Of a stretch of DNA of 64,000 nt, positions 4,623 to 43,600 are shown in pieces. Every line of letters begins with the position of its first letter. Positions within the stretch are counted from its first letter, which is position 1. Source of the stretch: a virus; IMG/VR virus record IMGVR_UViG_3300045988_135886, one strand, 5' to 3'. The notes beneath the pieces are model-generated. The model had not been told where the DNA came from, did no database searches, and saw only the letters and a program-made list of their open reading frames with translations. The position numbers and the translations under genes were made by a program.

Positions 4623-4651
4623 ACTTTACCACAACTGTTTGGTTGTGTCAA
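4623..4651 (-). promoter_or_regulatory. sigma-A-type promoter, leftward (TTGACA-17-TGgTAAAGT)
   Basis: The reverse complement gives ttgaca (4651-4646), a 17-nt spacer, then tggtaaagt. It faces the 4352 promoter. Confidence 0.5.
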
Positions 4652-4762
4652 GTACTTTTTAAAACTTTTTGAAAAAGTTTTATTTACTGTTTTAGGAATT
4701 TTTCTGTGGATTCCAGAACCATTGTTTGAACTTGTCGACCGCCTTTCCTTATCGACACGCTT

Positions 4763-4791
4763 ATCATACTACTGTTACAGTAGGTTGTCAA
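4763..4791 (-). promoter_or_regulatory. sigma-A-type promoter, leftward (TTGACA-17-TATGAT)
   Basis: The reverse complement gives ttgaca (4791-4786), a 17-nt spacer, then tatgat (4768-4763). Confidence 0.5.
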
Positions 4792-4968
4792 TACTTTTTT
4801 TGAAAATATTTTTATTTACACGTTTACGAAAGCCTGCAAACCCGCATAAATACAGGCTTTTTGGCATGAAAAAAAGTTTTTTCGTGAAAAATTACTTCCT
4901 ATTAAAGCGAAAAATAAAGGTCGTCAGGAGCAGGCAGATTGCATACATAGTGTAATACATAGTTGTTA

Positions 4969-5019
4969 GAATATTTAGAATAGATTAAATATTTAGAATA
5001 GTTTAAATATTCAGAATAG
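4969..5019. repeat. three tandem 18-bp direct repeats (core ATATTYAGAATAG)
   Basis: Cores at 4971-4983, 4989-5001 and 5007-5019 with an exact 18-bp period. They lie immediately 3' of the RHH gene and upstream of the leftward promoters. Confidence 0.7.
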
Positions 5020-5037
5020 AGTGTTAATTAGTAAAGT

Positions 5038-5214
5038 TTAATCAATTATATCTGCAATACGTGATTTAATGAAAGTTGCTACTGCAATATTGTTAGAATC
5101 GCAATATTGTTTGAGTTTTTCGTATTCGTCAATACGCAATGCGACACCTATACGTTTTAAGTTCTTTTTATCCCACTCTTTTACATATTTCTTGTTATAT
5201 TCATAATTTGACAT
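5038..5214 (-). CDS. ribbon-helix-helix (CopG/Arc-like) DNA-binding protein (58 aa)
   Basis: Hand-translated: MSNYEYNKKYVKEWDKKNLKRIGVALRIDEYEKLKQYCDSNNIAVATFIKSRIADIID. This fits a beta-strand (KRIGVALR) followed by two helices. RBS aagagg. Below the ORF-track cutoff. Confidence 0.6.
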   Translation of the reverse strand: MSNYEYNKKYVKEWDKKNLKRIGVALRIDEYEKLKQYCDSNNIAVATFIKSRIADIID

Positions 5215-5440
5215 AAATCATAGCCTCTTTTCTATTCAATTTGTTGAGTTGTATATACAATTAAACTTCTAGTAAAAATTATTAGATAATTCAGTGCATA
5301 AGAAAACAATTGTCTGAAACATTGAATTTTAAAGCAAAATTGTATTCACAATCTTAAAAACACTATGGCTCGAGCAGAGAAAACAGACACAATTCAATAC
5401 AATTCGTTATATTGACTGAATACTCTGATTACTTTAGTAC

Positions 5441-5945: not shown

Positions 5946-5974
5946 TTGACATTTTTCATGGTTAATGCTATAAT
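5946..5974 (+). promoter_or_regulatory. consensus sigma-A promoter for the rightward block (TTGACA-17-TGcTATAAT)
   Basis: ttgaca at 5946-5951, exact 17-nt spacer, tataat at 5969-5974 preceded by tgc. Followed by hairpin atccc-gaaa-gggat and RBS caggagg before ATG 6015. Confidence 0.8.
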
Positions 5975-8466: not shown

Positions 8467-8628
8467 GTTGATTGTTTTTGTTGGTGAAAAGTTTTCCATC
8501 GAACATAATATAATTAATATGTTTTTATTTAATTACTATATCTCAAGTAGAAAAAATGGTTTTCTTGAAAAAGGACTGAGCGAAGCGAAGAACTTTTGAA
8601 ACCGTTATCTACGTTAAAAAAGAAAGGA

Positions 8629-10275
8629 ATGATTACAATAGCAAAGCAGAAAAAATGTAAAAGATACTTATTCAAGCTCCACAGTGAACGTCTTCGTAGA
8701 TCACGCTGGAAGCTAGAATATCCATTAGAGGAAGCTCTAAACACAGAAAACATTATTTCTCTGTCTGATAGCCAAATTCTCAGATTCATTGATGAACTCA
8801 ACGGAGACACCAGTGAAGCCAGAGAAGAAGAAGCTTCTTATATAAAGAAAGAAATCAAGCGTCTCAAAAAATCTGATTCTTCTAAGAAAGATACTCTCAT
8901 AGCAAATCTCTATAAAAGATTCTATAATCTTCAATTTGTTCCAGATTACATGTGTCTGATCATTGATAAAATGTCTGATTATAACAGAGCCAATAAAGGC
9001 TTTTCTATCAATGGAATTAAATATCACAGACTCCTAGGCACCAACGGGGGCATAAAGAATTCTACTATTGTTTATGTCTCTGAAAGGCTATATCCCCAGC
9101 TCTATGAGCGTCTCTGTTGCGGCAGGAACCTAGAACAAAAATTTGTGCCAGCTAAACTTGAAGCGTACCAGGCACTGATCTGTTCCGGTAGTATTCCAGT
9201 AAGTATGCCAAAAGGGATCATAGTCGTTCCTGACTGCATTACTCATTTCACAGAAGACATTATTCGTGTAGATGACTCTCAGTCTGATGAACCAATAGTA
9301 GAGTTCCTCAAGGATCAAGAAATAGAGCTTACGGAATCAGACGGTTACGGAATCATGCTTCCATCACTCTCTTACCGTTGGGCAAGAGAGCTTGACGAAG
9401 AAGAAGATTTTTTATCTGGCTGTAATCTCAGAGGACTTCCATGGACAAAGGGCATGGTTTTCACAATGGATTACTTAGCTTTTGGGGAATCTATAGCGAA
9501 AAACTTCTATATAAAAGATGCCTGGGGAGATATGAGAGATATCAGAGAGTCTGAACTGATTATTACTACTTCTATGCTTAAATTATGGGATTCCTACTCT
9601 TCTTTCGAAGATTACTGGTCCAATATAGAAAAATATCATTATCAAATATCTATAGCCAAGACTGCTCCTGCAAGACTTGATGAGTACAGAAGCACAAATT
9701 ACCAGTTCCTGCAGAATTACCACCTTACACCGGAAGAAGTAACTGAATTGGTCCGTCCTACAGTAGAAGAAATTCAAGAAATCCTTGGATTAGATTACAG
9801 GAAGTCACTCCTATTTCTGAGAGGAACAAATCTTACAGAAGATTCCTATATTGATGAAGAGCCATATATCAACGCTCTCATGATTGAGCCACAGATGATT
9901 CATGATCCTTACATCAGAGATAGAATCTACAATATGATAAAGAAAAAAATCAGACAGGCCAAGATTGGTGTACTCAAAGTGAGGGGTAACTTTGCCATCA
10001 TTGGAGGGGATCCGTATAGCTTGATGCAGAGTATCTTTGGTTTACCGGTCACAGGATTGCTCCACGCTGGGGAATGCTGGCATAAACATTGGCTTGATCG
10101 AGGAGTCAGCGAGGTCTGCTGCTTCAGAGCACCTATGACAAGCAAATACAATGTGCGTAAGCTTAAGATAGTAGGGACTCCTGATATGACTTATTGGTAT
10201 AGATATATAAACACATGCATGTTGTTAAACTCATGGGATAGTACTAAGGAAGCTCTTAATGGAGCTGATTGTGAT
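8629..10275 (+). CDS. YonO/RdRP-like two-barrel RNA polymerase, exon 1
   Basis: ATG 8629 has RBS aaaggaa (the ORF track starts at TTG 8596). The C-terminal part, VCCFRAPMTSKYNVRKLKIV...CMLLNSWDSTKEALNGADCD, resembles the RdRP/YonO catalytic barrel. It ends inside the DxDGD motif and runs on only 12 more codons before a stop. Confidence 0.7.
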
Positions 10276-11268
10276 AAAACTCTGTCACCTTATACAGCGA
10301 TGTATATGTAAAACTCGGTGAACTTACAAATGTAAGGTGTCCGGAAGTACCGGGCTAACAGTGGAACTCTTATTGGAAAAATAGATTATAAAAAAGAAGG
10401 TGAGAACAATAGAAGAAAGAATTTTAAATGTAAAAGGTATTGATTACATAGTTCGTGAAGATGGAAAAATATTTAGTACTCATAATCGTGGTAGAGCGAA
10501 ATATCATCAGGAAATAAAACAACGTATGAATTCAGATGGGTACATGTGTATTACTGTCGGTAAAACAGGAAACAGAACAGTTGCCAGTGTTCATAGATTA
10601 GTAGCAAAAGCATTTATCCCTAATCCTTTAAATTTACCGGAAGTAAATCATAAAGATTACAATCGCACAAACAACAGTGTAGATAACTTAGAATGGTGTT
10701 CACATAAAGAAAATATTGACTATACTCTCGCTGCTGGCAGACATGCTTCGCAGACGTTAGATTATAGTGGCAAGAAAAATCCCAACTACGGAAACACCAC
10801 ACTCAGTCAGAAGTACAAAGCTGATCCTGCATATTCAAAAGAAAAACAATCTCGTCCCGGAGGACAGAATGGAAGAGCTATTCCAGTATGTTTGTTAGAT
10901 AAAGACAAAAATGTAATAGCAACTTTTCCATACATGCAGTTATGCGCAGAATATGTGTTGAAACAACTGCACTCTTCTTCATCTCCGGCAGGTCTAGCAG
11001 GAAGAATCCCATATTATATAGAAACAGGTAACATATATAAACACACATACTATTTTTCCAAAGACAATACTGTGCTAAGTCTCAATAATGAGAAAAGTTC
11101 AACGACTATCGAAAGCATAGCTTAAGAGAAATACTTAAGTAAAGAAGCAAGTAGAGTACCTTGTGAGTGGAATCCTCGCAGGGGAAGTGCCGAGCATCTG
11201 TATCTTGGTGATAGAGCTACAGATGAAGATATAGTCTAGTCCTTATGGAAACATAAGGTGTTAAGTCG
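10276..11268 (+). mobile_element. group I intron (HNH-encoding) in the RNA polymerase gene
   Basis: U10275 precedes the 5' splice site and G11268 is the last intron nucleotide. Guide ctct-gtcac (10080-series 10280-10288): gtcac pairs with gtgat (10271-10275), and ctct pairs with exon 2 ggag (11269-11272). R box gttcaacgactat at 11097-11109. S box gaagatatagtct at 11225-11237. Confidence 0.8.
10400..11125 (+). CDS. HNH homing endonuclease (NUMOD4-like N-terminus)
   Basis: IDYIVREDGKIFS...VHRLVAKAFIPNP...VNHKDYNRTNNSVDNLEWCSHKENI is a classic HNH signature. GTG start. Confidence 0.85.
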   Translation: MRTIEERILNVKGIDYIVREDGKIFSTHNRGRAKYHQEIKQRMNSDGYMCITVGKTGNRTVASVHRLVAKAFIPNPLNLPEVNHKDYNRTNNSVDNLEWCSHKENIDYTLAAGRHASQTLDYSGKKNPNYGNTTLSQKYKADPAYSKEKQSRPGGQNGRAIPVCLLDKDKNVIATFPYMQLCAEYVLKQLHSSSSPAGLAGRIPYYIETGNIYKHTYYFSKDNTVLSLNNEKSSTTIESIA

Positions 11269-12354
11269 GGAGACTTAATGTTTACTACTAACAATACTAT
11301 CTTATTAAAACATACAGAAAACCTACCGCCAATCTATTGCATCCAACGTAAAGGAAACAAGGTAGTTCCGACTGAGACAGATATGATACAAGCTAATAAA
11401 GGTTCTTTCGGTGATGCGATTGGTCCTATTACTAATGTTATCACTTCACAGATATGCTTACAGGCAAGGTTCCCGAAAGACAGTGAGGAATATAAAGTCT
11501 TAGACTACAGGATATTGTGTGGGCAGCTGTTCCAACAGAACTCTATTGATAAAGCTAAAGGAATCATCGCTAAACCTATGCCAAAACATTGGTATGACAA
11601 TAGCTACAACCGTATAGAAGAAACAGATACACCAGAAGAAATATCTAAGAAGGAATTCAATCAGAGAATTTGTGCAGATAAGAAGCCGTACTTCTTCATC
11701 TACAACTACCCTACTCTTATGAAAGAATACAAAGACTACATCAAAACATCAGATGCCGTGAGCAGGTCCAGATTTAATATTCCGCTGGAAGAGCTGCTGT
11801 CATCACAAGAGTTGACTGAAGAACAGGCAGAGTTTCTTAAATTCTATAAAGAATTCTATCCAGTCAATGCAGAAACCTGTGTAGTCAATGAACTCTGTTG
11901 GGAAATTGAGAAAACACTGGCTGATGTAAAAGAAAGTAAGGTACCGTTTGACAGTTCTATTCTGAAGTCAGATGCCACCTACACAAATAAGGATAAGGCT
12001 TTTATAAAACGTATCTATGATAAATATAACAAAACTTATGCAAACAGAATGAGCCGCCATAGCTCTGTGTATGAAGATACTTCTTTAACTCCTATTGGAA
12101 TGACTTTTGAATCAGAGTGTGCAGAATATGTTCCAGACGCAGAAAAGCTTTGTAACATTCTGGTTGATTTGGGATATAACACAAAAAAGGGTAAAACTTT
12201 CGTCTGGGAGATGTCCGGAGATACTATTATTGATAACCTTCTTTCTCGAACAGATGGTTATGCGCAGTTTCCTGTAAAGGATCCAGACGGTGATATAGAG
12301 TTTTGCGGCGAACACTTCTCAATGAAAAAAGTAAAAATGAAAGGCGAAGAATAA
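11269..12354 (+). CDS. YonO/RdRP-like RNA polymerase, exon 2
   Basis: In-frame codons GGA GAC (G-D) at 11269-11274 complete GADCD|GD. The ORF continues for 362 codons. Confidence 0.7.
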   Translation, partial: GDLMFTTNNTILLKHTENLPPIYCIQRKGNKVVPTETDMIQANKGSFGDAIGPITNVITSQICLQARFPKDSEEYKVLDYRILCGQLFQQNSIDKAKGIIAKPMPKHWYDNSYNRIEETDTPEEISKKEFNQRICADKKPYFFIYNYPTLMKEYKDYIKTSDAVSRSRFNIPLEELLSSQELTEEQAEFLKFYKEFYPVNAETCVVNELCWEIEKTLADVKESKVPFDSSILKSDATYTNKDKAFIKRIYDKYNKTYANRMSRHSSVYEDTSLTPIGMTFESECAEYVPDAEKLCNILVDLGYNTKKGKTFVWEMSGDTIIDNLLSRTDGYAQFPVKDPDGDIEFCGEHFSMKKVKMKGEE

Positions 12355-13232
12355 TGGATTTAATACTCAACGAAAAACAATATATAGAAAAAATGTTAGA
12401 ACTCGGTGATTGTAGCCCTAAAGATTTAGGAGCAAACATAGCTCTTCTAACTAGATATATGTATCAGGAAAAGTATACTCAGAAAGAAATTTATAATGGT
12501 ATAGAAGAATTTGCTTCCAAAGTAGATTCTGATTTTGATATCAATAACTGGTACTCATTTATAGACAAATGTATTGGTAAAGCTAAGAAGAGAGATCTGT
12601 TGAACATTGATTATATACCTATTACGCAGAAAGAGTTAGATACCATCAAGGAAATCAAGAATCCTGCCAGGGAAAGACTTGCATTCACTCTTTTAGTCAT
12701 TGCCAAGTTTAACAATCTAAAATCAGAAACCAATAATAACTGGATCAATTATTCTATGGACGTATATTTCAACCTTGCCAGAGTAACTTGTAAAGTAGAT
12801 GATCGTCCGTACATAATTTATGACTTAAAGGAATTGGGGTTGGTTGAAGTGAGTAAAAAGATAACTCGCTTCAATATAAGAATCACATTTGTTGATAATG
12901 AGTCTGATCCGGTGCTTAAAATTACAGATATGCGTGAGTTGGGCTATCAGTATCAGAACTTGGGCCCGAAGTCTAAGATAAAGCTGTGTAAACGCTGCGG
13001 GAAGCCGTATAAAGTGAAATATTCTAAAGGCGGTTCACCTTATTGCACCGATTGCCAGAATAAAAGTGCCAAGGATGAAACAAAACTTATTACGTGTGAT
13101 TGTTGCGGCAAAGAATTTATTGCAGTATCTAAAAATAATCGTTCTGTACTTTGTTCCGAATGTCAAAATATTATTGACTTAGAAAAAACTCGTCAAAGAG
13201 TTGCTAAACATAGAGAAAAAAGGCATATGTAA
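12354..13232 (+). CDS. hypothetical protein with C-terminal multi-CxxC zinc-ribbon region (292 aa)
   Basis: ATG 12354 overlaps the preceding TAA (TAATG). RBS gaaagg. CKRCGKPY...CTDCQ...CDCCGKEF...CSECQ. Confidence 0.65.
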   Translation: MDLILNEKQYIEKMLELGDCSPKDLGANIALLTRYMYQEKYTQKEIYNGIEEFASKVDSDFDINNWYSFIDKCIGKAKKRDLLNIDYIPITQKELDTIKEIKNPARERLAFTLLVIAKFNNLKSETNNNWINYSMDVYFNLARVTCKVDDRPYIIYDLKELGLVEVSKKITRFNIRITFVDNESDPVLKITDMRELGYQYQNLGPKSKIKLCKRCGKPYKVKYSKGGSPYCTDCQNKSAKDETKLITCDCCGKEFIAVSKNNRSVLCSECQNIIDLEKTRQRVAKHREKRHM

Positions 13233-13253: not shown

Positions 13254-13290
13254 TCTCCGCAAATGCGCTCTACAGGCGCGTTTGCGAGAT
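13254..13290 (+). terminator. imperfect long hairpin after gene 12354-13232
   Basis: tctccgcaaatgcgc / gcgcgtttgcgaga stem with loop tctacag, followed by tttcgtt. Confidence 0.4.
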
Positions 13291-15005: not shown

Positions 15006-15623
15006 ATGGAAGAATTATTTGATTTTCCAATTATGAAAAGTGGAGTAGATGAATTAGTTGCTGATATCATCAAAAGCAACTATGACAATCGTAGATTAAT
15101 CATTAACGATGAAATCAATAACAATCTATTAGAGTCCATCTGTTTATATATTTTGAAATATAATCAGGAAGATAAAGATGTTCCTGAAGATAAAAGAAAG
15201 CCTATTTGGATTATTTTAAATTCAGTAGGTGGAGTCGTAAACTTCGGAATGGGACTCATTGATTGTATTAAACATAGTATCACACCTGTTTATTGCTTAA
15301 TAATTGGAATGGCTGCAAGTATGGCAAGTTATATTCCAATGGTTTGTGATAAATCATATATCTTTCCTAATAGTACAATTTGTATTCATGATGGACAAAC
15401 CGGTATTATGCAGACTTCCAGAAAAGCAAATGACATCATGAATTTTTATAATAAATGTGATGAACGATTAGCTGAACTTGTATATGCCAATACCTCTATT
15501 ACCAAAGATTTTTTAGACGGTATTGCTGATCGAGAATATTATATGTTCCCAGAAGAAGCTAAAGAATTGGGAATTGTTGATACTATTGTTGGCGTTGACT
15601 GCCCTATTGATGAAATATTATGA
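15006..15623 (+). CDS. ClpP-family (S14) serine protease-like protein
   Basis: ILNSVGGVVNFGMGLIDCI...VYCLIIGMAASMASYI...ICIHDGQTG...REYYMFPEEAKELGIVD follows the ClpP Ser/His/Asp pattern. Confidence 0.7.
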   Translation: MEELFDFPIMKSGVDELVADIIKSNYDNRRLIINDEINNNLLESICLYILKYNQEDKDVPEDKRKPIWIILNSVGGVVNFGMGLIDCIKHSITPVYCLIIGMAASMASYIPMVCDKSYIFPNSTICIHDGQTGIMQTSRKANDIMNFYNKCDERLAELVYANTSITKDFLDGIADREYYMFPEEAKELGIVDTIVGVDCPIDEIL

Positions 15624-15964
15624 AATATTCCAAAAAGGAATTGATTGCTAAGGTTTCAGAAAAAACAGGCTATCAAGAAGAAAATATAGCTGAAATATAT
15701 GAAGCTTTAGAAGAAACTGTGTATGATTTACTCCTGTCAGCAAATGAACATAAGGATGTAGAAATTCGACTGTTCACAGGATTTGGTATGTTTAGTAAAT
15801 TAGTACCAAGTCATGAGAAAAAGATGCCTGACGGAGAAATTAAAACAATAGAACCTACTTTAAAATTCTCTGCACGTTACAGTGCTCGCTGGAGGAAAGA
15901 TAATATTAAAGAGTACAGAGAAGCTTTAAAATTGTGGGAAAGAGTGAAAGGAAGAAAAGGATGA
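15620..15964 (+). CDS. divergent HU/IHF-family DNA-binding protein
   Basis: KKELIAKVSEKTG...VEIRLFTGFGMFSKLV...TLKFSA follows the HU fold pattern. ATGA overlap with the upstream gene. Confidence 0.55.
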   Translation: MKYSKKELIAKVSEKTGYQEENIAEIYEALEETVYDLLLSANEHKDVEIRLFTGFGMFSKLVPSHEKKMPDGEIKTIEPTLKFSARYSARWRKDNIKEYREALKLWERVKGRKG

Positions 15965-16158: not shown

Positions 16159-16932
16159 GTGTCCTGTGGTATATATTGCATTGAGAATAAAATAAATCAC
16201 AAAAAGTATGTTGGTCAATCTATTGATATTAAATCACGATGGACTCAGCATAGACATACAAGTTCTTTAGTAAGAGATACATTTCTTTATAGAGCAATGG
16301 ATAAATACGGTGTTGAGAACTTTGATTTTTATATACTTGAAGAATGCCAACCTGACGAGTTAGATATTAAAGAAATTTATTGGATAGCTACATTAGATAC
16401 ATATAATTATGGGTATAATATGACTCTTGGTGGATCAGGCTTGGTAGGTTACAAAGCTTATAATAGAAACTGTATTCCTAAAAATTTTGGAATGCTTTCT
16501 AATGGTGTAGACGAAACTGTACCTATTATAAAGTTAGATACTAACTATGAAGTGTTAGAGTATTATGTAAGCGTACAGGACTGTGCCAGAGCTAATGGCA
16601 TAGCTTCCACAAACATTTCTAAAACTGCATCAGGGAAAAACAATACATGTCATGGATATATTTTTATGTATTTCAATGACATTAAGGATATGACCACTGA
16701 TGAAATTATTTCTTATAGATTACATCAAAGAAAGAATTATAAAGATTCTACCCTAAAATCTATAGATCGAATCTCCTCTTCTGGAGAAATTATCAATAAT
16801 TATGAAAGTATTAGTCAAGCAGCTAAAGAATTAAATTTAGATCCATCTTCTATAAGCAAGGTGTGTAAAGGAAAACTAAAACAAACTCACGGCTATAAAT
16901 TTAGATATGCCGTAGTAAATAATAAAGAATAA
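16159..16932 (+). CDS. free-standing GIY-YIG homing endonuclease
   Basis: CGIYCIENKINHKKYVGQSIDIKSRWTQHRH...YNYGYNMTLGG. Paralog of the capsid-intron ORF 27459-28241. Lies between intact genes, not within a split gene. Confidence 0.8.
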   Translation: MSCGIYCIENKINHKKYVGQSIDIKSRWTQHRHTSSLVRDTFLYRAMDKYGVENFDFYILEECQPDELDIKEIYWIATLDTYNYGYNMTLGGSGLVGYKAYNRNCIPKNFGMLSNGVDETVPIIKLDTNYEVLEYYVSVQDCARANGIASTNISKTASGKNNTCHGYIFMYFNDIKDMTTDEIISYRLHQRKNYKDSTLKSIDRISSSGEIINNYESISQAAKELNLDPSSISKVCKGKLKQTHGYKFRYAVVNNKE

Positions 16933-16949
16933 AAGGAGAAATAATTATT

Positions 16950-17222
16950 ATGACAAAAGCAGAAGTTATTACAAAAGTAGCAGAAACAACAGGAATCACA
17001 AAGAAAGATACTGGAGCAATGGTTGACGCATTTCTTCAGGTTATCACTAATGAACTGGCAAGCGGAGGAAAAGTAGCATTCACAGGATTCGGTTCTTTCT
17101 CAGTTGTTGAAAGAGCTGCTAGAGAGTGTCGTAATCCGCAGACGGGAGAAACTATGATGACAGAAGCTCATCTTGCACCTAAATTCAAAGCCGGAAAAGC
17201 ATTAAAAGATGCAGTGAAATAA
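16950..17222 (+). CDS. hup: HU-type DNA-binding protein (canonical)
   Basis: MTKAEVITKVAETTGITKKD...VAFTGFGSFSVVERAARECRNPQTGETM...PKFKAGKALKDAV. Confidence 0.85.
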   Translation: MTKAEVITKVAETTGITKKDTGAMVDAFLQVITNELASGGKVAFTGFGSFSVVERAARECRNPQTGETMMTEAHLAPKFKAGKALKDAVK

Positions 17223-17263
17223 ATATTAAATTGCTGACCTGGTGAATTCCAGGTTGGCGATTT

Positions 17264-17335
17264 GTCCGGTTAGTCTAGCGGTTAAGACACTGCGCTTTCA
17301 ATGCAGTAACATGGGTTCAATTCCCGTACCGGATG
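17264..17335 (+). tRNA. tRNA-Glu (anticodon UUC)
   Basis: Hand fold: 7-bp acceptor (G1:U72), 4-bp D stem gtct/agac, anticodon stem ctgcg/tgcag with loop cuUUCaa, 4-nt variable loop, T arm atggg-ttcaatt-cccgt. No encoded CCA. Confidence 0.8.
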
Positions 17336-17426
17336 TTTGTATATTTGAGAGTTGTGGGTAATCTCAAATGTCATTTTCCGTATAGTTGTTTCTTTGGGGA
17401 GAACTGGAACTCCCCCCTCCTATTCT

Positions 17427-17509
17427 GCAAAGTAAATTCACAAGGTGTGGAACCGACCTGCTAAGTCGTGTGATCCGACAGGATTGAGTTTCGATTACTC
17501 TGCTTTGCG
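17427..17509 (+). tRNA. type II tRNA-Ser (anticodon GCU), atypical
   Basis: Acceptor gcaaagt/gctttgc, loop cuGCUaa, variable-arm stem atcc/ggat, T loop ttcgatt. The D arm is non-standard, and the anticodon and T stems each have one mismatch. Confidence 0.5.
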
Positions 17510-17576
17510 TTACAAGATATGTAGATTACAGCCCACCTCCTGTGGGAATTCGTAGGTGAAAATCCTACCATGTAAC
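17510..17576 (+). pseudogene. tRNA-like cloverleaf with a 5-nt anticodon loop (degenerate tRNA?)
   Basis: Acceptor ttacaag/catgtaa (one A:A mismatch), D stem tgta/taca with a 3-nt loop, stem cccac/gtggg closing loop ctcct, T arm gtagg-tgaaaat-cctac. Confidence 0.3.
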
Positions 17577-17638
17577 TCTTGGTTATGTGATTGTAGCATA
17601 TCATGAATATAAAGATAACCGGATTGATTCCGGTTGAA

Positions 17639-17663
17639 AGGCAGGACTACTCTCCTGCCTTTT
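17639..17663 (+). terminator. hairpin with a short U-tract inside the tRNA cluster
   Basis: 8-bp stem aggcagga/tcctgcct, 6-nt loop, then ttt. Confidence 0.45.
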
Positions 17664-17720
17664 ACTTATAATTAGGAAATGGCTGCGGAGCGGCCTAACA
17701 ATCTGGAAAGACAGATTAAT

Positions 17721-17804
17721 GTTGCGTGTCCGGTAGGTCGAGGGTGCAGTCTTGAAAACTGTCTGGGTGTAAAAGCCTCTGGGGTTCGAATCCCTAACGC
17801 AACG
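17721..17804 (+). tRNA. type II tRNA-Ser (anticodon UGA)
   Basis: Perfect 7-bp acceptor gttgcgt/acgcaac, anticodon stem gcagt/actgt with loop cuUGAaa, long variable arm, T arm tgggg-ttcgaat-cccta. Confidence 0.7.
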
Positions 17805-17807
17805 TCC

Positions 17808-17889
17808 GGGAGAACGGTAGAGATGGAGATCTACGGCGGTCTGTAAAACCGTTGCAATTGCTTTGAGTGTTCGAATCACTCTTCTCCCA
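17808..17889 (+). tRNA. type II tRNA-Tyr (anticodon GUA)
   Basis: Acceptor gggagaa/ttctccc, D stem gtag/ctac, anticodon stem gcggt/accgt with loop cuGUAaa, long variable arm, T arm gagtg-ttcgaat-cactc. Lies 3 nt after tRNA-Ser. Confidence 0.8.
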
Positions 17890-26563: not shown

Positions 26564-27024
26564 ATGAAACTTAATTTTTCAAGTAATGAAGTAAGAAATA
26601 TTTTTGCTGAAAATGATTATGCAGAGTACTCCCAGCTTATGTTTGACACAGCTAAGGGAGAAGAAAAAGTATCTACAAAAGATGCTAATAATAAAATCAG
26701 AGAGATTATGTTCTCTGTACTTGGAGTAGATGAAAACTGCTCAAGAAAAGAACTTAGAAAAGCTATTCGTAGACATAAAATTGATGTATTTGAAATTATC
26801 GAAGAGACAGTAGAGAATCTGCTTGTTTCTGGTTGGGGAGAAAACCCATTCTTCAATGAATTTGTAGAAATCAAATCTATGGCTGACGGTGATACTAATG
26901 AGTTCTATGTACCGGATGAAGTTATTCTGACAGTGTCTGAACTTGCAGGCAATCATCATGACCTGATCAGACAGCGTCTGGCAGAAGGACAGACATTCTC
27001 TGTTAGAACTTCATGGTATGGGAT
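26564..27024 (+). CDS. major capsid protein, exon 1
   Basis: RBS aaaggagg. Ends ...FSVRTSWYG, then 3 codons and a stop. Together with 28265-28883 it makes a 359-aa protein in the capsid position. Confidence 0.65.
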
Positions 27025-28264
27025 TAACTTTTAGTCCCCAAGTACTGTAAAGTGCTTTGTACAAACTAACGCATTGAATTGCTGGAATTTCTTAAAGCTA
27101 ATTACACTACAACGTAAGTATGAAATAAAACTAAGCGTGAATGTTATGAAAATAGAAAGAAGTAATTAGATGATACAAGGTTAAATCCTAAATATCGAGA
27201 GCACTCAACACCTATAACAGGTGTTTTTATTATGCTTAAAATAGAGAATCAGCAGCCAAGATCCGAACAGGATAAGGTTCAACGACTATCTGGAAACAGA
27301 GTAGAACTACAAGCGATTGGTAGTTCGAAGTGGTGCGCACCCTCAATTAGGGTGAAGATATAGTCTAATCTTTAGTGAAAGCTAAAGGGCTTTTAGCCAA
27401 CACAGAGTAGCGTCTGAATTAATATCATTTTTCAAAATAATTATATAAGGAAGTATACATGAAAGAAAAACTATGTGGCATTTATTGCATAGAGAATATA
27501 CTCAACAATAAAAAATATATTGGTATGTCAAGAGATATAAAACGGAGATGGTCTGAACATAAAACAGAATTAAACTCTCATACTCATGTCAATCAGTATT
27601 TACAAGCTGCCTGGGATAAGTACGGCAAAGAAAATTTTAAGTTTTATATTATTGAGTTATGTGATGAAGAGAATCTCAGTGAACAAGAATGTCATTATAT
27701 ACGTTTTTATAAATCATTATCACATGAAAATGGATACAATCTGACTACTGGTGGAGAAAATACTTCTATCGGCAAATCAGTAATATCATTAAAAGATGGG
27801 GCTATCTACAATTATGTAAATGATGCAGCTCAAAATGCCAACGTTCAGTCAGCAACTATGATTTCATGGTGTCGTCAAAAACATAACTATATGTATTTAG
27901 ATGAGTATAACGCTCTTTCTCAAGATGAGAAAGAATATTGGAAAAATTTTGATTGGAAAAACTTTGATCATAAAAAATTAAGTCAAGTACATTCTCGAGA
28001 AAATCTCTCAACAACTACCCTGAAAAAACTAAGTCAAGCGACATCTGGAGATAAAAATCCAAGAGCGCTAAAAGTGTATTGCCCACAATTAAATGAAACA
28101 TTTGATTGTATAAAATATGCATCAGATAAGTATGGCGTTAATAGAGGAAGTATAACTTCTTGTATTAAAGGTAGACTTAAAAGTGCCGGTAAACATCCCG
28201 CTACCGGAGAAAAATTAACATGGGAACTAATTGAAAAATGATATTAAAGTGTTAAATATAAATG
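27025..28264 (+). mobile_element. group I intron (GIY-YIG-encoding) in the major capsid gene
   Basis: P box gaattgctggaa (27076-27087), Q box aatcagcagcc (27247-27257), R box gttcaacgactat (27277-27289), S box gaagatatagtct (27354-27366). Guide tttta-gtccc (27029-27038): gtccc pairs with gggat (27020-27024, U27024:G27034), and tttta pairs with exon 2 taaaa (28265-28269) after G28264. The join is in frame. Confidence 0.8.
27459..28241 (+). CDS. GIY-YIG homing endonuclease (intron-encoded)
   Basis: CGIYCIENILNNKKYIGMSRDIKRRWSEHKT...NGYNLTTGG. RBS aaggaag. Confidence 0.85.
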   Translation: MKEKLCGIYCIENILNNKKYIGMSRDIKRRWSEHKTELNSHTHVNQYLQAAWDKYGKENFKFYIIELCDEENLSEQECHYIRFYKSLSHENGYNLTTGGENTSIGKSVISLKDGAIYNYVNDAAQNANVQSATMISWCRQKHNYMYLDEYNALSQDEKEYWKNFDWKNFDHKKLSQVHSRENLSTTTLKKLSQATSGDKNPRALKVYCPQLNETFDCIKYASDKYGVNRGSITSCIKGRLKSAGKHPATGEKLTWELIEK

Positions 28265-28883
28265 TAAAATTTACGCAGAATATGAGCTGTTTATGGCAGG
28301 TCGTATTGACTGGGCTGGATTCGTACAGAAAATCTATGAAGCTTTTGACAAGAAAATTAATGATATGGTATATGCGGCTGTAATGGCAGCAGGTGAGAAG
28401 GTTCTCCCGTCTACACAGTTTAATAAGACAGGTACACTTTCAGCAGCTACAAAAGATGAGTTTATGACTCTAATCGAAGATGTACAGATGGCTACAGGTG
28501 ATGAAGTAGTTGTTATGGGTACCAAATCTGCTCTTGCAAAACTTTCTGCTATGGAAGATATTACTTGGGTATCTAATGCAATGAAAGATGAAAGACACAC
28601 TACAGGCCGTTTAGGTATGTTTGAAGGTATTCGTCTTGTTGAAATTCCACAGAGATTTGCTAATAATGACACAAGTAAAAAGTTAGTAGATAATACTAAA
28701 CTTCTGATTATGCCAGTAGCTGATAACAAATTTATCAAAATCTACAATGAAGGCGACGCTCAGATTAAAGAAGTATCTGATGGAAATACAAATATGGATA
28801 AAACTATTGAGTATGAATATCAGATTAAAATGGGTGTGGCCACAATTATTGGAAAGCGTTTCGGAGTTTGGACACTTAAATAA
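28265..28883 (+). CDS. major capsid protein, exon 2
   Basis: The frame is open from 28248. The junction reads SWYG-I-KIYAEYELFMAGRIDW. No SD before the listed ATG 28293. A strong hairpin follows. Confidence 0.65.
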
Positions 28884-35537: not shown

Positions 35538-38069
35538 ATGGCTGATTATATAATAAACGTTGGTGTACAAGTCGAGGACAGTGCGCTAAATGCATTAGAA
35601 ACACGAATTAATTCTTTAAAAGAGAAGCACATTAAACTAGGTGTGGAATTAAGTAATACTAAACAGCTAACTAAAAATGCACAGACAGCGGTAAAGACAA
35701 TAAGTAAAGCAACTGCCAAAGCCGCTAAAAATACTCCTGTTATTAAGGGATCTAATCTTGTAGAACAGATGGTAAATCCTGAAGAAGCTTTAAAATCTAT
35801 GGCTAATACAGTCAGTAAGCTGTCAAGGTATCAGGACAAGCTTGATCTAGGAGAAGTAAAACTTTCCGTAAATCAAGGTATTATGGGGGAGCTTGATGGA
35901 CTTTTAGCCAAACTTAATGAAATAAAATCTACAGCTAAAAACATGGGCTCTATTAAGCTTACTGTTGGAGACAATATAAAAACTAAAGACGGTAAAATAG
36001 TTGTTGGAGAAACTACTAGTTCTTCTAATACTGCAAGATCTACAGGCATTACTCTTAGACAAGCTCAAGCTGAAATTAAGAGAAATATGAAGACAATAGG
36101 AACCCTACAGGAACAGTATATAAGTGGGATTATTGATGAAAGTACTTATAAACAGTCAAAGAGAACTATAGGACATAGAAATTCTCAGCTGGCTAGACAG
36201 ATACAAAATCAAGGTACTGCTTCTGATTGGGTTACTTCTGCATCTGACATTCGAGGAGCACAGGCTAAGAATCAAGAAGCATACAAAGCAATGACTCAGA
36301 GTGCTTCAGAATATGACAAAGTTATCACTAATTTGGGTGAGAAACAGAAGACATTCAATAAAATGGCTCAAGTATATAATCCTAACAATGGTAAACCATT
36401 AGATAAAACTCTAGGACAAGGTTATGATGAAAGATTAAAATCTTTCAATGATACATATGAGCAATTAAAAAAATCTCGTGATAGTCTTGCGACTCTTACT
36501 GGAGACGAAAGAGACACTGAGCAAGTACGTTTTGCTGCTCTTCGCTCTGAAGCCAATCGTCAAGCTAGATATCTCGGTAATACTAATCAGTTTTTCTCAC
36601 GTACTCCAAATAGATATAGCCGTTCAGAATATATTGGTACAGATTTAGATCCAGCATCTGATAAGGTCCGTCTTAAGATGGAACAAATGTCAGCAGATCT
36701 GGCAAAAGGAAGCAAATACACAACAGAGTTTAATGCAGCACAAGGTAAAATGTATGCTACTATTGATAGAGGGTCTGGTGTATTTGAAAAATATCAATTA
36801 GCATATAAAAATGGTCCAGGTAATATTGACCAGTCTCTTACTAAAGTTACACAAAGTGTAAAACCTTTATCTAGTTATCTTTCTGAAATGGGACAAAAGT
36901 TCCGTAGTCTTAGCCAGTATCTTGTAAGCAATTTTGGATTCCAAGCATTAACAACGGGTGTCAGATCCGGTGTCGAATCAATAAAAGAATTAGATTCAGC
37001 GATGACTGAACTTAAGAAAACATCAGATGGTACAAAACAAGAATATAGAGACTTTACTACTCAGGCCAGAACTGATGCCAAAGACATTGGTAGTACAACA
37101 ACTCAGATTACTAGTAGTGCTGCTGATTTTTCTCGTCTTGGATATAGCTTAAATGAATCTCAGACTTTAGCTAAAAATACAGGTATTTTAAAAAATGTAT
37201 CAGAATTCGGATCTATAGATGATGCAACAACCGCTATGATTTCCATGATGAAAGCATACGATGTAAAAGTTGATGATTCTATGGATCTCGTTGATAAAAT
37301 GAATCTTATTGGTAACAACTATGCAATTTCTACAGACGGAATTGCCACTGCTTTACAAGATTCAGGTTCAGCATTAGTAGCAGCGGGAAATGACTTCGAT
37401 AAATCAGTTGCTCTCGTTACGGCAGCAAATAGTGTAGTGCAGGATCCATCGAAGGTAGGTGCTGGTCTTAGAACAATTGCATTACGACTTAGAGGCACTT
37501 CTGCTGAAGAATTATCTTCTATGGGTGAAGATACAGAAGGTCTTGTAGAGACCACTTCTAAACTTAATTCAAATATTAAATCTCTTACTGCCGTTAACGG
37601 TAAGGCTGGAGTTTCTATTCTTGATATGAATGGAAACTATAGAGATACTTATGATATTTTAAAAGATATCTCTCAGGTTTGGGATGATATTGGTAAACAA
37701 GATTTGGCAGATGGTCAGAATAGACAGGCTGCTCTGCTTGAAATGATGGCAGGAAAAAATAGAAGTAATATTCTTGCATCCATATTGCAGCATCCTGAAT
37801 TGCTTACAGATGTTTATAATGATTCCGCAAATAATTATCAAAATTCAGCTCAGAACGAGCTTAATACATACCTTGATTCTATCGAAGCAAAAACAACTAA
37901 AATTAAAGAATCTTGGTCACAGTTATGGCAATCAGAAGGTAGTACTAATACTTTTAAAGGATTGCTTGATATTGGCAACGGCGCTGTAGGACTCTTAAAT
38001 GGTTTGGGACTTAATAAATCCTTAGCCGGAGTCGGCGGTATGCTTGTTAGCCATGCTATGAACTGGGGT
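35538..38069 (+). CDS. tail tape measure protein, exon 1 (TP901-type core region)
   Basis: RBS gaggtgag. NLIGNNYAISTDGIATALQDSGSALVAAGNDFDKSVALVTAANSVVQDPSKVGAGLRTIALRL. The listed ORF runs 9 further codons to 38096. Confidence 0.75.
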
Positions 38070-38525
38070 GGGACAAATTATCAGTTGGTCCTTTAGAAAA
38101 CGCCCCATGTAACCTGGTGGTGACACGGAACGATCTCATATGAGAAAGGGGTTACTAAGCAAACAACCGAAACTGTCTTTATTCGAAGGAATAGAGAAAT
38201 GCTTTTAATTTAGCATTCAGGGTGAACCGAAGTATATACTACTCCCCTATTACAGCAATGTAATAGGTATAGTAACAACGTATATATATGGGTGATCTGC
38301 AGCGAAGCTTCTCTCTGAGAAGAACGTTCATCGACTATAATGGGAACTTGGTCTCTGGATCAAGAAGGAATAGTCAGGACTGTTAGGCAGCTTGCGCCGA
38401 ATAAATTAAAGGGTAAATACATCTTACTCTCGTAAGCAATCTTACCTTATGTGCAAAGGTGATGTAAGCACAAATCTTTACTTTATTATTCTTCTATGCT
38501 ATATTTCACATAGGAGGGTAAAACT

Positions 38526-38990
38526 ATGATAATAAATAATTCTATCAGAACTTATGCACCAATTGCTCCGCCATATTTTGACGGATGCTTATTTATGAAT
38601 GCAACTTATGAAATGCCAGAGGAACTGGCCAATTTGTTTACTAAAGGATTAGAATCCTTAAGCAAACATTTATATGAAAAAAATATTGATCCTACTAAAT
38701 TATTTCCTGTAAGTTTAATATTTACAAAAGATGGCAGTTTTTCTGTCACCGAAAATGAAGCAACCACTTATGGAAGATGTATGTCTTTTTTAGTATACTC
38801 CATGGAACGAATAATTACATCTAACAATCAACACATGCAGCTATTCGCATTTATTGAAGAATTAGTGCATTACTATTTTCAAGAAACAAATGAAACAAAA
38901 GTCAAACTAACTACTTTTTCTGTTGTCCAGAAAATATTCCCAGAAATAACTTTCGAGGAGGTAACATCATGGGGAGTAAATTGGAGTTAA
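38526..38990 (+). CDS. intron-cargo hypothetical protein (154 aa)
   Basis: RBS taggaggg. No homing-endonuclease motif. Contains FIEELVHYYFQE. Confidence 0.55.
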   Translation: MIINNSIRTYAPIAPPYFDGCLFMNATYEMPEELANLFTKGLESLSKHLYEKNIDPTKLFPVSLIFTKDGSFSVTENEATTYGRCMSFLVYSMERIITSNNQHMQLFAFIEELVHYYFQETNETKVKLTTFSVVQKIFPEITFEEVTSWGVNWS

Positions 38991-39604: not shown

Positions 39605-39790
39605 TTAGTCAACTTTTTTATTCTTGTATTGTCTTTTCATCATTCCGGTGATAAATTTGACTTTCTCATCAGATAATTCTGGATGATTGCAAATTTGATC
39701 AACAGTATGATTTTTCGAGTTGTAATATAGACCAGCTAATATTACAACAAGTAAAAGACTACTAAGAGATATTATTATTCCAGTATTCAT
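39605..39790 (-). CDS. intron-cargo single-pass membrane protein (61 aa)
   Basis: ATG 39790 with RBS gggggtg. Transmembrane segment IIISLSSLLLVVILAGLYY. Confidence 0.55.
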   Translation of the reverse strand: MNTGIIISLSSLLLVVILAGLYYNSKNHTVDQICNHPELSDEKVKFITGMMKRQYKNKKVD

Positions 39791-40037
39791 ATTCTTCTTT
39801 TCACCCCCTTCCCTTATAAATTTCTTTATTGGGGAAGTGTATTGCCCAGAACGGGCAGATTCTTCGTCCACATCAACAATACAGAATGTATGCCAACACT
39901 TCTGCATGATCAAAAGAAATGATCAAGTATATTATCGTGCAGCGAGTTATAATGCAGCACCTATAACCATAATATACCTAGTAGTATAATAACAATATTC
40001 GACAACTTTGTATATACAGAACATTAGTTTATTATAA

Positions 40038-40547
40038 TCAAAACTTAGCTCCACACTTACAGCACTGATAAGTCTTACCAAGATCACCTGCTCCAAAAAG
40101 ACCAAACAGACCTATCTTCATTGCTTTTCTTGTTCCAGTGATTTTCTTAAGATTTGTGCTGCCGCAGATTGGACACTTAGGCCCAGTAGAGAATTTCTGA
40201 GCATTCTGTTTGGCATACCACTGGTCTGTGTTTTTGTTTCGTTGCTCTACTCCTTCAGGAGATTCCCAGTATTTTCTTTCTGCAGTGGCTGCTTTGGTAA
40301 CATCAGAGTCTAGCTTGCCATAGAAATATTTCTCTCGGAGCATTTCATCAGATTCTTCTATGCTAGGATAATCACCATTATGTGTTTTTTTATACTCTTC
40401 TGTTACTTCTGCATAAGCTTTAGAAAAGTTTATTGTTGTACCTATAAGATTACCCTTTAAACAACTTGAACATAAATCACCTATAGTATTTGAACAACTC
40501 ACTGCTCCACATTTATTACAAAATAAAAGTTCACTCATAATTTTCAC
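40038..40547 (-). CDS. intron-cargo double zinc-ribbon protein (169 aa)
   Basis: RBS aaaggtg. CNKCG...CSSC at the N-terminus and CPICG...CCKCG at the C-terminus, with a G-rich hydrophobic patch IGLFGLFGAG. Confidence 0.6.
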   Translation of the reverse strand: MKIMSELLFCNKCGAVSCSNTIGDLCSSCLKGNLIGTTINFSKAYAEVTEEYKKTHNGDYPSIEESDEMLREKYFYGKLDSDVTKAATAERKYWESPEGVEQRNKNTDQWYAKQNAQKFSTGPKCPICGSTNLKKITGTRKAMKIGLFGLFGAGDLGKTYQCCKCGAKF

Positions 40548-40575
40548 CTTTTATATAGTTTTTAAGATGAACTAT

Positions 40576-40604
40576 ATTATATCACAGTATCTGGTTTTTG
40601 AAAA
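40576..40604 (-). promoter_or_regulatory. leftward promoter for the antisense cargo block, straddling the predicted 3' splice site
   Basis: The reverse complement gives ttttca (40604-40599), 17 nt, then tgatataat (-10 at 40581-40576). About 30 nt upstream of ATG 40547. Confidence 0.5.
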
Positions 40605-43600
40605 GAACGATCAAGGTGGAATTTTACCAGAAACACGTTGGAGTAGAAGAACAAGATTGTACAACGAAGGTCGTGCGGAGGCTTTATCAAATTGGAAAGA
40701 ATATGATAATGACACAAGAGCATTGACCCAGCTTAATAATGCACTTCAGAATAATGGTCAAACTATTACCGATAACGCAGAAAGACAGAAAATTGCTGAT
40801 AAAACTCTAAAAAATGCCAGTGAAAGAGCGAAAGAATATGGTAACCAAATTGTAGCGAATACGAAAACTCTTAGTGACTTTAAGAAAGAGAATGAAGTAG
40901 AGGACCCCAATAAGCAAGTAAAACCTAAATTTACTGATGGATTAAAAAGTTTTGCTTCTTCTGCACTTTCATCAATTGGTAATGCTGTTGTTTCTGCCGG
41001 TACAGCAATGATTGCACAGCAATTAATCTCATGGGGACTTCAAGGTATTGATGCTATTGTTCATTGGAATGATAACATTATTGCTAAAGGAAAAGAAGCA
41101 AAAGAAACAATCCTTGAGCAAAATCAAACTTATAAAGATCAGAAGTCTCAATTAGAAGAGCTCCAAGAACAATATACAAAATACGCTTCAGGTGTCAAAA
41201 TCTCTGGTAATATTATTAAAAATGCCACTCTTTCGGATGAAGATTTTCAAGCGTTTCTCGATACAAGTAATCAAATTGCTAACTTAGCACCTTCTATGAT
41301 TGATGGTTGGGACTCTGAAGGCAATGCTATTCTTAAATTTGGAACGGATACCAAAGAAGCTAATCAGCAAATTTCAGATTATATTCAACTCCAACGTGAC
41401 GTAACACATCTATCCATTAGAGATAATCTACAGGATGAGTATAAGGGTGTAGTTAAAGATGCAGAGAAAACTGGAAAAGAAATTTCTAATAAAAAAGATC
41501 AAAAAAAGGAAGCAGATACTATTACATCTGGATGGACCGCATTAAAAAATGCAACCGAAACAGATGGACCTATTACTTTTACTACAACTGCACCACAAAA
41601 AGAAGTTGAAGAATTACTAGATAAATATAAAGTTACATCGTTAATAACTAGCGATGTAAATGGTGATACTTATACAGTAGATATGTCAGAGCTTTCTGCG
41701 GCAGATAAAAATGCTCTTAAAACGTCTCTTGAATCTAAAGAAGCATTAGCTCAAGGTAATGCCAATTTAATTGAATCTGAAAAACTTGCTCAAGAAGCTG
41801 TACAAGCATCTAAATGGAAAGATTTACTTCCAAGTTTACAAGCATATGTTGAATCATCAAATATGTTTGATAACATGGATTCAGATGTTGCAGAAAGAGC
41901 TAAAAATGGCATTAACACAATGCTATCCAATATTGATATTTCTAAAATGACAGATCAAATAAAAGATGCTGGTGGTATTGATGATTGGATTGATAAGACT
42001 TTAATCGCTCCTATGACATCGGGTTCGAAAGATGTTCAAAAAGCTTGGGCTGACCTTTTTTCATTGGAAGACTCTTATGGTTCCGAAGATTCAAAGATGA
42101 CAGTTGGAGAATGGTCCAAACAGCGAAATGATTATCTTAAAACAATTTCTGAAGGTACTGGTGAAAGTTTTGATAGTCTTGCTAAAAAATTAGGATATAA
42201 AACTGATGAAGGTTGGACTGTTAGAGAACAGATTAACAATGCAGCTGCTCGTCTTTATGGAAAAAACTATGATAGAGATCAAAGAGCGGAAATAGGTAGT
42301 TATTTAAATGGATTGACCAAAGATAATTATGAAATAGCTATTGATTTACTTATTAATGGTGATAAAGCATTTTCTTCTTTAGATGAATTTAAAGAAAAAG
42401 TTAATGAAGCAATAAGCAATGCTAAGAATCAGGCAGATGAAGCTGCTGTTTCTTTAGATTCAATGGAAACGAAAGTATCAACTGCTAAGTCTACTCTTTC
42501 TTCTATGGGAACTATTCTTACAGAGACTACTTCTGCAGGTGGAATTTCTAAAGACAATGTTAAGATCCTTTCTACTGCTTTCAAAGATGTGAAAGATCCT
42601 CGTGGCATTGAGCAAAATGTTAATGATTTATTCACCACTACTTCTGATGGTATCAAACTAAACATAGATGCTTTGAAAACCTTTACGGAATATCAGGCTG
42701 AAGCCACTGATGGAGATTTCGAAAAGGGTATTAAGTTACAGACTAAAGCTATTGCCGAGCAAGCAGAAGAAACAGATAAAGCTTGGAAAGCTATTGCTAA
42801 AGCCGATGACAAGGAAGCAGCTAGAGCAACTTATGACGCAGAAAAAGATAAATTAAAAGATGCTAGAGACGAATATTTATCCTATATGCAATCTCAGTCT
42901 GAATGGCAAGCGACTAAGAAACAGCAACAGGAACTTCTCTCCTATTATTCTCAGTGGCAACGTGCTCAGAGTACGGAGAATGCCGGAGATAAATATAATA
43001 ACATTGTCGCAGGACTAAAGAATGCTAAAGATGCATATGATAAAGGTCTTGTAGGTACAGATGATTTTAAATCATTTGCTGCTCTTATTTCTCCTACAGG
43101 TTCAGATGATAGAGCAAACTTTGCAGAGAATTATGGTAAAGCTGTAAGATACCTCACAGAAGATAAGACAGGTGTTAATAATTTCTTAGCTGATCTTAAA
43201 TCTAAGGGTATGGCATCTTATGATGATGCAAGTAAAAGATGGTCATTTGACATAGATGATATGAGTAAAGCCGCTCGATCAATGGGAATCAGCAAAGAAT
43301 TCATGAGTGCTAACTTCGGTCGTCTTCGTGATTATGGCATTGATAATAACTTTATATCATCTATAGAGGAAGGTATAGACAGAACTCAAGAACTTACTTC
43401 TGCCCTTTCAGATGAACAGAAACGACTCGAAGAACTGAAAAATACAGATAGTACTAACACTACTGCTATTTCTGCTTCTGAGGATAAAGTTAATAAATAT
43501 AAACAGGATTTAAAAGAAACCTATGATAACATGGAGTCTTATTCAGAAGATGCTGCTCAAAATGCTGTTGATAATTTCAATTCATCTGCCATGGGAGCGC

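Follow-up and report, generated by a model that had tools for sequence, protein, structure and literature searches.

Three consecutive open reading frames (ORFs) on the + strand of an uncultivated virus genome raise the question of whether they are separate genes or the pieces of a single one, and what the restored protein would do. They lie in IMG/VR virus record IMGVR_UViG_3300045988_135886, of which a stretch of 64,000 nucleotides (nt) was analysed (the window), and occupy positions 8596-10311, 10400-11125 (241 amino acids, aa) and 11278-12354. The first ORF terminates with ...NGADCDKTLSPYTAMYM at its stop codon. When position 10275 was joined to position 11269, the reading frame continued as ...STKEALNGADCD/GDLMFTTNN... 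(the slash marks the junction, ...NGADCD/GDLMF), and the joined product had 910 aa. The analysis described below identifies this product as an RNA polymerase related to YonO of phage SPbeta, encoded by a gene in which an apparent group I intron separates the codons of the catalytic aspartates.

Exon 1 (8629-10275, + strand) encodes residues 1-549 and ends with the first two catalytic aspartates (...ADCD). Exon 2 (11269-12354, + strand) encodes residues 550-910 plus the stop codon and begins with GD, which supplies the third. A first-pass annotation of the window had proposed a spliced product of about 910 aa with its start at TTG 8596. The peptide strings quoted there were found in the window, the junction string exactly as quoted, and the length was right; the start codon was probably not. 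TTG 8596 was rejected because the gene calls of relatives give an exon-1 product of 560 aa that begins MITIAKQKK. The start is therefore most likely ATG 8629, which makes the product 910 aa.

Natural intron-less alleles in IMG/VR and the ENA share the exon junction of the window. One of them (P0001; 95% identity, 900 aa, uninterrupted gene) reads ...NGADCDGDLMFTTNND... across it. An uninterrupted reading frame was present in seven IMG/VR loci (L002-L007 and L025; 2,697-2,730 nt matched, about 2,730 nt), and 16 others carried an insert of 992-993 nt at the exact same point (L008-L016 and L018-L024; 3,722-3,723 nt), as did five further contigs (L029-L033). The exact junction, and the precise presence or absence of the insert at this one site with the frame restored, are thus matters of direct observation. 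The insert is 992 nt long in some of the intron-bearing relatives (L033, L021).

To place the joined protein in a family, we compared it with YonO by BLASTP, which gave an E-value of 4e-23 and 25% identity over 509 aligned positions. In this alignment DCDGD lies on DNDGD of YonO and CCFRAP on ILRSP, such that FRAP is paired with LRSP. Searches of phage genomes with tblastn detected homologues in c-st (38% identity), in Enterocloster phages (36-37%, or 36-38% with c-st included), in BUCT082 (31%) and in SPbeta-like phages, where the match was yonO itself (SPBc2; 25%, E 6e-17). Within an alignment of 53 diverse homologues that included YonO and the PMBT24 protein, D547, D549, D551, R500 and P502 were invariant, as were D238, G239, K274, G275, K318, D643 and K646. 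The Asp triad also aligns with the DLDGD motif of RDR2. The first-pass annotation had read a strand ending in R.P followed by DxDGD as the signature of a YonO-like and eukaryotic RNA-dependent RNA polymerase (RdRP)-like two-barrel enzyme, and had held that unconserved DxDGD aspartates would speak against it; both motifs proved to be invariant.

Profile and structure comparisons pointed in the same direction. The Pfam family PF05183 (RdRP) was matched by 28 of the 53 aligned homologues (best E 1.1e-21), and precomputed matches to it exist for many homologues that are 48-56% identical to the window protein. A profile built from the family and run against the PDB gave RDR2 and QDE-1 as the only matches below E 0.01, through the motifs sDGxG...KG and DxDGD. 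An AlphaFold model of the joined protein was obtained with a predicted local distance difference test score (pLDDT) of 90.1 and a predicted template modelling score (pTM) of 0.84. The Foldseek comparison that the first-pass annotation had suggested was positive: the top 21 PDB chains were RDR2 or QDE-1 (E 1.9e-15 to 3.4e-11, TM 0.38-0.48, probability 1.00), followed only by weak matches to beta' chains (E 0.02-0.1). The other finding that the annotation had said would speak against its proposal, a lack of structural or profile similarity to two-barrel polymerases, was thus not borne out either. In the viral structure library BFVD the matches were phage entries named 'RdRP', crAss-like polymerases and LEF-9. 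The protein is a YonO-family two-barrel RNA polymerase, as had been proposed, and its homology to YonO is the firmest part of the model developed here. To our knowledge, no bacterial or phage relative of the two-barrel polymerases other than YonO has been characterised, the multi-subunit enzymes aside.

The 993-nt insert (10276-11268, + strand) was analysed for the signatures of a group I intron. Alignment to Rfam RF00028 was convincing for the 3' half (P3', P7, P8 and P9), and the 5' half is displaced by an ORF. The P7/P9 core includes GAAGAUAUAGUC. At the 5' splice site, the end of exon 1, GUGAU (10271-10275), can pair with GUCAC (10284-10288) to form P1 with a U.G pair at the splice site. 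CUCU (10280-10283) can pair with GGAG, the first bases of exon 2 (11269-11272), to form P10, and the last base of the insert is a G (11268). In sequence and fold the insert thus combines a U-ending 5' exon paired with a guide G, a terminal G and a P10 helix. On these features and its presence or absence among relatives, we identify it as a mobile group I intron that splits the Asp-x-Asp/Gly-Asp motif and is polymorphic in the population, and from them we infer that it is spliced in vivo.

The same D/G boundary is interrupted in two isolated phages. In c-st a 317-nt insert without an ORF separates the exons ...NGMDMD/GDAVIST, and in Enterocloster phage CB473P3 433 nt, likewise without an ORF, separate ...NGCDFD/GDAIYST. 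Rfam did not call the interruptions at the loci of c-st and the Enterocloster phages; manual inspection of the exon junctions and the shared P7/P9 core revealed them. The three introns at this site have a core of ACGACUA...UAUAGUCUAnUCC in common and little else. A second site of interruption, near residue 643, was seen at L035 2073-3197 and L036 3060-3524 and confirmed in CB457P2 and CB473P3; it adjoins the invariant IDxxKG motif (D643, K646). Among the best 150 of 1757 family representatives, about 12 matches stop at query residues 547-552 and about 10 at 638-647. This suggests that YonO-type genes have two recurrent sites of interruption, with the reservation that some of the stops may be truncations at contig ends.

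A megablast search of phage genomes found no close relative. The only match was to 62 nt of the intron core (11097-11158), which are 89% identical to a segment of Yersinia jumbo phage phiR1-37. That segment (L038 4001-4061) falls between genes annotated as two fragments of a DNA polymerase (g167 and g164) and probably belongs to a related intron in a different gene of a phage with a very different host. The window itself contains a second split gene, a member of the structural module with unknown function (phrog_4088), which is cut into 26564-~27014 and ~28293-28883. Its intron has a group I core at 27015-27387 (72.3 bits in Rfam) followed by a GIY-YIG/NUMOD endonuclease ORF (27459-28241); in the P7/P9 segment, this intron and the polymerase intron are 82% identical.

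The ORF within the polymerase intron (10400-11125, + strand; 241 aa) encodes a predicted HNH homing endonuclease of the I-HmuI type, and its 3' end overlaps the intron core. It matched Pfam HNH_3 (E 7e-8, 32.4 bits with a cut-off of 24.8) and the PHROG family phrog_59 (E 1.7e-35). A tblastn search with the protein gave matches in 1,912 phage records; among the matches listed, most are annotated as HNH or homing endonucleases. We compared the flanking exons of the window with four intron-less alleles (L002, L003, L005 and L025). The 90-nt bin at the junction contained 16-17 differences, as against 0-3 in most other bins. The differences are almost all synonymous and are confined to positions of roughly -19 to +81 relative to the site of insertion. 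One of them, U to C at 10272, would break P1. Co-conversion in the course of homing would be expected to leave such a footprint, as would selection acting on the target of the endonuclease. An HNH catalytic domain, a location inside an intron and a flanking tract of this kind together mark the protein as a homing endonuclease whose nuclease activity is predicted. In L033, where the intron has 992 nt, the endonuclease ORF is frameshifted into pieces of 66 and 193 aa (4628-5352), which suggests ordinary decay of the homing element in part of the population.

What would the polymerase transcribe? YonO of SPbeta is a processive DNA-dependent RNA polymerase that is required for expression of the late genes, and a triple mutant in which the aspartates were replaced by asparagines was inactive (Forrest et al. 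2017, PMC5467207). According to its discoverers, the promoter determinants of YonO are an open question (PMC5467207). We turn to the surroundings of the gene. The sequence at 5946-5974 (+ strand) fits the sigma-A/sigma-70-type promoter consensus in 12 of 12 positions (TTGACA, a 17-nt spacer with TG, TATAAT; extended -10) and is the only 12/12 match in the window; in relatives both hexamers are invariant and the spacer varies. This putative promoter is followed on the + strand by an ORF at 6015 (89 aa), a Bro-N anti-repressor gene, an ORF at 7502 (281 aa), the polymerase gene and a gene for a 292-aa protein, here called the partner. A hairpin that resembles a terminator (13258-13286, + strand; 12-bp stem, 7 G-C pairs, weak T-run) lies at the end of this run and may close the polymerase operon.

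Further downstream on the same strand come genes for PhoH, ClpP, a free-standing GIY-YIG endonuclease and HU and three tRNA genes, and then the portal, head and very long tail genes, the tape-measure gene included, to about 59 kb. In a simple scan, no other intergenic + strand site reached 11 of 12 promoter matches, and the region from 13.3 to 59 kb had no strong intergenic sigma-A consensus on the + strand. This agrees with the suggestion in the first-pass annotation that the polymerase would probably transcribe the late module and that late promoters here need not look sigma-A-like, but as evidence it is weak. Comparison of the HU-yonK region of SPbeta and BUCT082 with the intergenic regions of the window revealed no similarity. 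The tape-measure-like part consists of an 852-aa ORF (35538-38096), a gap of about 2.4 kb, a 2870-aa ORF (40567-49179) and a 2117-aa ORF; the gap holds a short + strand ORF (38526-38990) and two - strand ORFs (39605-40547). The tRNA genes (Glu-UUC, Ser-UGA and Tyr-GUA; 17263-17889) lie right after the HU gene, a position that corresponds to the late promoter region and non-coding RNA of SPbeta. Directly upstream of the HU gene, the free-standing endonuclease gene (GIY-YIG plus I-HmuI-NUMOD) occupies 16159-16932; this region varies among related contigs, which have either a 257-aa or a 211-aa endonuclease.

These data can be combined in the following model. Host sigma-A RNA polymerase would start at 5946-5974, transcribe the early rightward operon and end near the hairpin at 13258-13286. 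The intron would remove itself by splicing; translation of the unspliced RNA would reach the stop at 10311 and yield a 560-aa protein without the third aspartate. The 910-aa enzyme would hold the catalytic Mg2+ through D547, D549 and D551, as YonO does, and would, like YonO, be a DNA-dependent polymerase, transcribing the structural and lysis genes that follow in the same direction. In doing so it would probably act together with a translationally coupled winged-helix/zinc-ribbon protein (the partner) and with HU. The intron endonuclease would meanwhile drive homing into intron-less alleles during co-infection.

Taken as a whole, that is, a YonO-family polymerase with an intron-split triad that is made from an early operon and transcribes the late genes, we regard this model as very probable. 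Its least secure step is the DNA-dependent transcription of late genes, which is argued by analogy. That the enzyme works on a DNA template and is specific for late genes, and that the partner and HU act as described, is what we infer, not what we observed. Several results weigh against the model. Pfam gave no match to the joined window protein at E-values up to 1, PF05183 included, and plain phmmer with the window protein gave no match among PDB sequences. The Rfam match of the intron to RF00028 (10843-11258; 49.7 bits, E 2.2e-11) is 0.3 bits short of the curated cut-off of 50. No phage-polymerase promoter motif was found in the window, where the repeats were chance families and the two intron cores. 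Finally, the template preference would follow by analogy with YonO only, which is 25% identical, and the closest solved structures are RNA-dependent polymerases.

The failure to find a phage-polymerase promoter would also fit a polymerase that has a role other than late transcription, such as replication priming, synthesis of a regulatory RNA or transcription of middle genes only. The genes that sit between the polymerase operon and the head genes (PhoH, ClpP, tRNAs and homing endonucleases) could be read in the same way. However, deletion of yonO in SPbeta silences exactly the 37 late structural and lysis genes (PMC5467207), and in PMBT24, Perkons, BUCT082 and TR-TP1 the polymerase gene is likewise followed by HU and then by the structural genes. 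We consider such another role unlikely.

Eukaryotic RdRPs supply both the nearest solved structures and the only Pfam family, and GenBank names the relatives in PMBT24, TR-TP1 and Perkons 'RNA-dependent RNA polymerase', so that the enzyme might be thought to copy or amplify RNA instead of transcribing phage DNA. These names, however, derive from the name of the Pfam family and not from experiment. The phage genome is double-stranded DNA, and the gene heads a long co-directional late cluster, as in SPbeta. YonO, the sole characterised member, is a processive DNA-dependent polymerase for late genes (PMC5467207). An RNA-dependent enzyme is in our view quite improbable.

That the gene is dead, broken by insertion of an HNH endonuclease element so that two ORFs are left as remnants, is most improbable: gene callers do give two ORFs (560 and 358 aa), and among the three PHROG families of 'unknown function' into which the joined protein falls one is full length, one contains exon-1-only products (phrog_25339, E 1.6e-191) and one exon-2-only products (phrog_35857, E 3e-58), but the insert has a group I core, P1 with U.G at the splice site, P10 and a terminal G, the exons join in frame and restore an invariant motif, they are nearly identical between intron-bearing and intron-less alleles outside the co-conversion tract, and different introns occupy the same site in c-st and CB473P3.

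We return to the favoured model, in which a late-gene polymerase would act with a partner. The partner gene (12354-13232, + strand; 292 aa) follows the polymerase gene directly, its ATG overlapping the polymerase stop codon as TAATG. The protein is helical at its N-terminus and probably contains a winged helix; it also has two Cys4 zinc ribbons and a basic tail. Four cysteines are invariant in the family alignment and three more are present in at least 90% of the members, which fits two zinc ribbons. A partner homologue follows the polymerase gene in 78 of 80 GTDB loci, at a distance from the polymerase match of 0-42 nt in 74 of them and of 71-253 nt in four. The family profile also matched the genes downstream of the polymerase in c-st (CST177), BUCT082, CB457P2 and PMBT24 (E 1e-52 to 1e-34). 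A structure model of the partner (pLDDT 87.7) had no significant Foldseek match (best E 0.065); the winged-helix reading comes from many weak matches (PerR, MarR, the ORC2 winged-helix domain and RepA). Against the PDB, the family profile matched generic zinc fingers.

No separate partner gene was found at the loci of SPbeta YonO and the Perkons enzyme. Both of these polymerases end with CxxC...CxxC and a basic tail, which resembles the C-terminus of the partner, and alignment of the partner family with YonO residues 797-827 by hhalign gave E 7.6e-5 with a probability of 62%. This pattern of fusion and fission suggests, with moderate strength, that the partner works physically with the polymerase. 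Because the partner gene is so tightly linked to the polymerase gene, the term 'single-subunit' may need qualifying in this clade. As the missing factor for specificity or DNA binding, the partner is a concrete candidate; its terminal module is fused to the polymerase in YonO.

The first-pass annotation had also noted an HU-like gene nearby. A gene for an HU-type DNA-binding protein, the counterpart of SPbeta yonN, is indeed present at 16950-17222 (+ strand; Pfam PF00216 Bac_DNA_binding, E 1e-33; phrog_379, E 8.5e-35), but it is not adjacent to the polymerase gene, from whose downstream end 4.6 kb separate it. A second, weak HU-like ORF of 114 aa was found at 15620-15964 (+ strand; phrog_379, E 1.3e-6 over residues 2-59), and weak precomputed Bac_DNA_binding matches exist in relatives. 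An HU gene also occurs near the YonO-type gene in six other phages (SPbeta, BUCT082, TR-TP1, Perkons, PMBT24 and c-st). In c-st a RAGATH-18 RNA motif (L034 10965-11025; 64.3 bits, cut-off 44.9) was found between the YonO-type gene and the HU gene CST174 that lies downstream of it, immediately before the latter; Rfam found no counterpart of this motif in the window.

BUCT082, which belongs to the genus Spbetavirus (L119), has a polymerase that is 25% identical to YonO, together with a partner gene and an HU gene of its own. In the same phage, the interval between the HU gene and yonK is 95% identical to SPbeta (L001) over about 1.5 kb. Because so divergent a polymerase stands beside an SPbeta-like HU-yonK region, the polymerase/partner/HU block looks exchangeable as a unit. 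We tentatively put forward, as a reading that is possible but somewhat doubtful, that the YonO-type enzyme here is the core of a portable cassette, with a 910-aa catalytic protein, a 292-aa partner and HU exchanged together, and that splicing of the triad intron gates formation of the active enzyme. In such a cassette the partner would bind DNA or give promoter specificity; in YonO and the Perkons enzyme the zinc ribbon is fused to the polymerase instead.

An exhaustive HMMER search (E up to 0.001) gave 1757 cluster representatives at 50% identity. A scan of GTDB genomes with the single protein gave no relatives; an alignment-based scan succeeded. The best GTDB relatives are 44-50% identical and come mostly from Clostridia of gut and rumen (Lachnospiraceae, Oscillospiraceae, Lacrimispora, Frisingicoccus, Hungatella, Ruminococcus and Roseburia), with a few from bins that carry the labels Prevotella, Odoribacter or Alistipes. 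Only metagenomes yielded near-identical copies, which, where named, are called 'hypothetical protein'. The source of the window is an uncultivated phage of gut Clostridia.

The family thus has very many members in the phages and prophages of gut Clostridia. Public databases list these as 'hypothetical protein' or under the misleading name 'RNA-dependent RNA polymerase', and split copies appear there as two or three ORFs treated as unrelated; the split copy in c-st is already annotated as a YonO homologue. The polymerase family and its mechanism were already known; the added interest of this locus lies in the triad intron, the recurrent use of its site and the partner gene. A polymorphic intron in the Mg2+-binding triad is a clean natural case in which a homing element targets those codons of an essential gene that are under the strongest constraint.

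Compared with SPbeta YonO, the window enzyme is likewise a single large catalytic chain, with homology over about 500 residues, both barrel motifs and the Asp triad. Both genes have an HU gene nearby, lie upstream of co-directional late genes and have a stem-loop or terminator after the operon. In contrast, the two proteins are 25% identical and differ in length (839 aa for YonO, 910 aa here), and the window gene is split by a group I intron. YonO has the zinc ribbon and basic tail at its own C-terminus, whereas they are found here on the separate 292-aa protein, and HU is adjacent in SPbeta and 4.6 kb away in the window.

The closest relatives in isolated phages (36-38% identity) are those of c-st (CST179 plus CST178, with CST177), PMBT24, CB457P2 and CB473P3. 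The c-st and Enterocloster phages share with the window a downstream partner gene and an HU gene nearby, and c-st and CB473P3 are interrupted at the same D/G boundary. Their introns differ in being short (317 and 433 nt) and without an ORF, and resemble the window intron only in the P7/P9 core. CB457P2 and CB473P3 have another intron near residue 643, and PMBT24 has no intron. QDE-1 (2J7N) and RDR2 (7EU0, 7ROZ and 7W82) have the same two-barrel fold over about 900 columns and the motifs sDGxG...KG and DxDGD. However, they are only 12-14% identical to the window enzyme, use RNA templates and act in silencing pathways, while the role on DNA proposed here would follow that of YonO.

The intron in gp210 of phage PhiPA3 (Birkholz et al. 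2024, PMC11620839) is also a group I intron that encodes an I-HmuI-like HNH endonuclease and interrupts the gene of a phage RNA polymerase. It lies just after conserved aspartates and is polymorphic among related phages, and silent changes affect recognition of its site. We considered whether the two introns occupy the same site and rejected this, as the PhiPA3 intron interrupts the gene for an RpoB-like (beta) subunit of a multi-subunit polymerase, in the region of RpoB D675 and not in the DxDGD triad. By analogy with the interference competition described for PhiPA3, the triad intron may matter for competition between co-infecting phages. The closest earlier case of an HNH intron in the gene of a phage polymerase is that of gp210.

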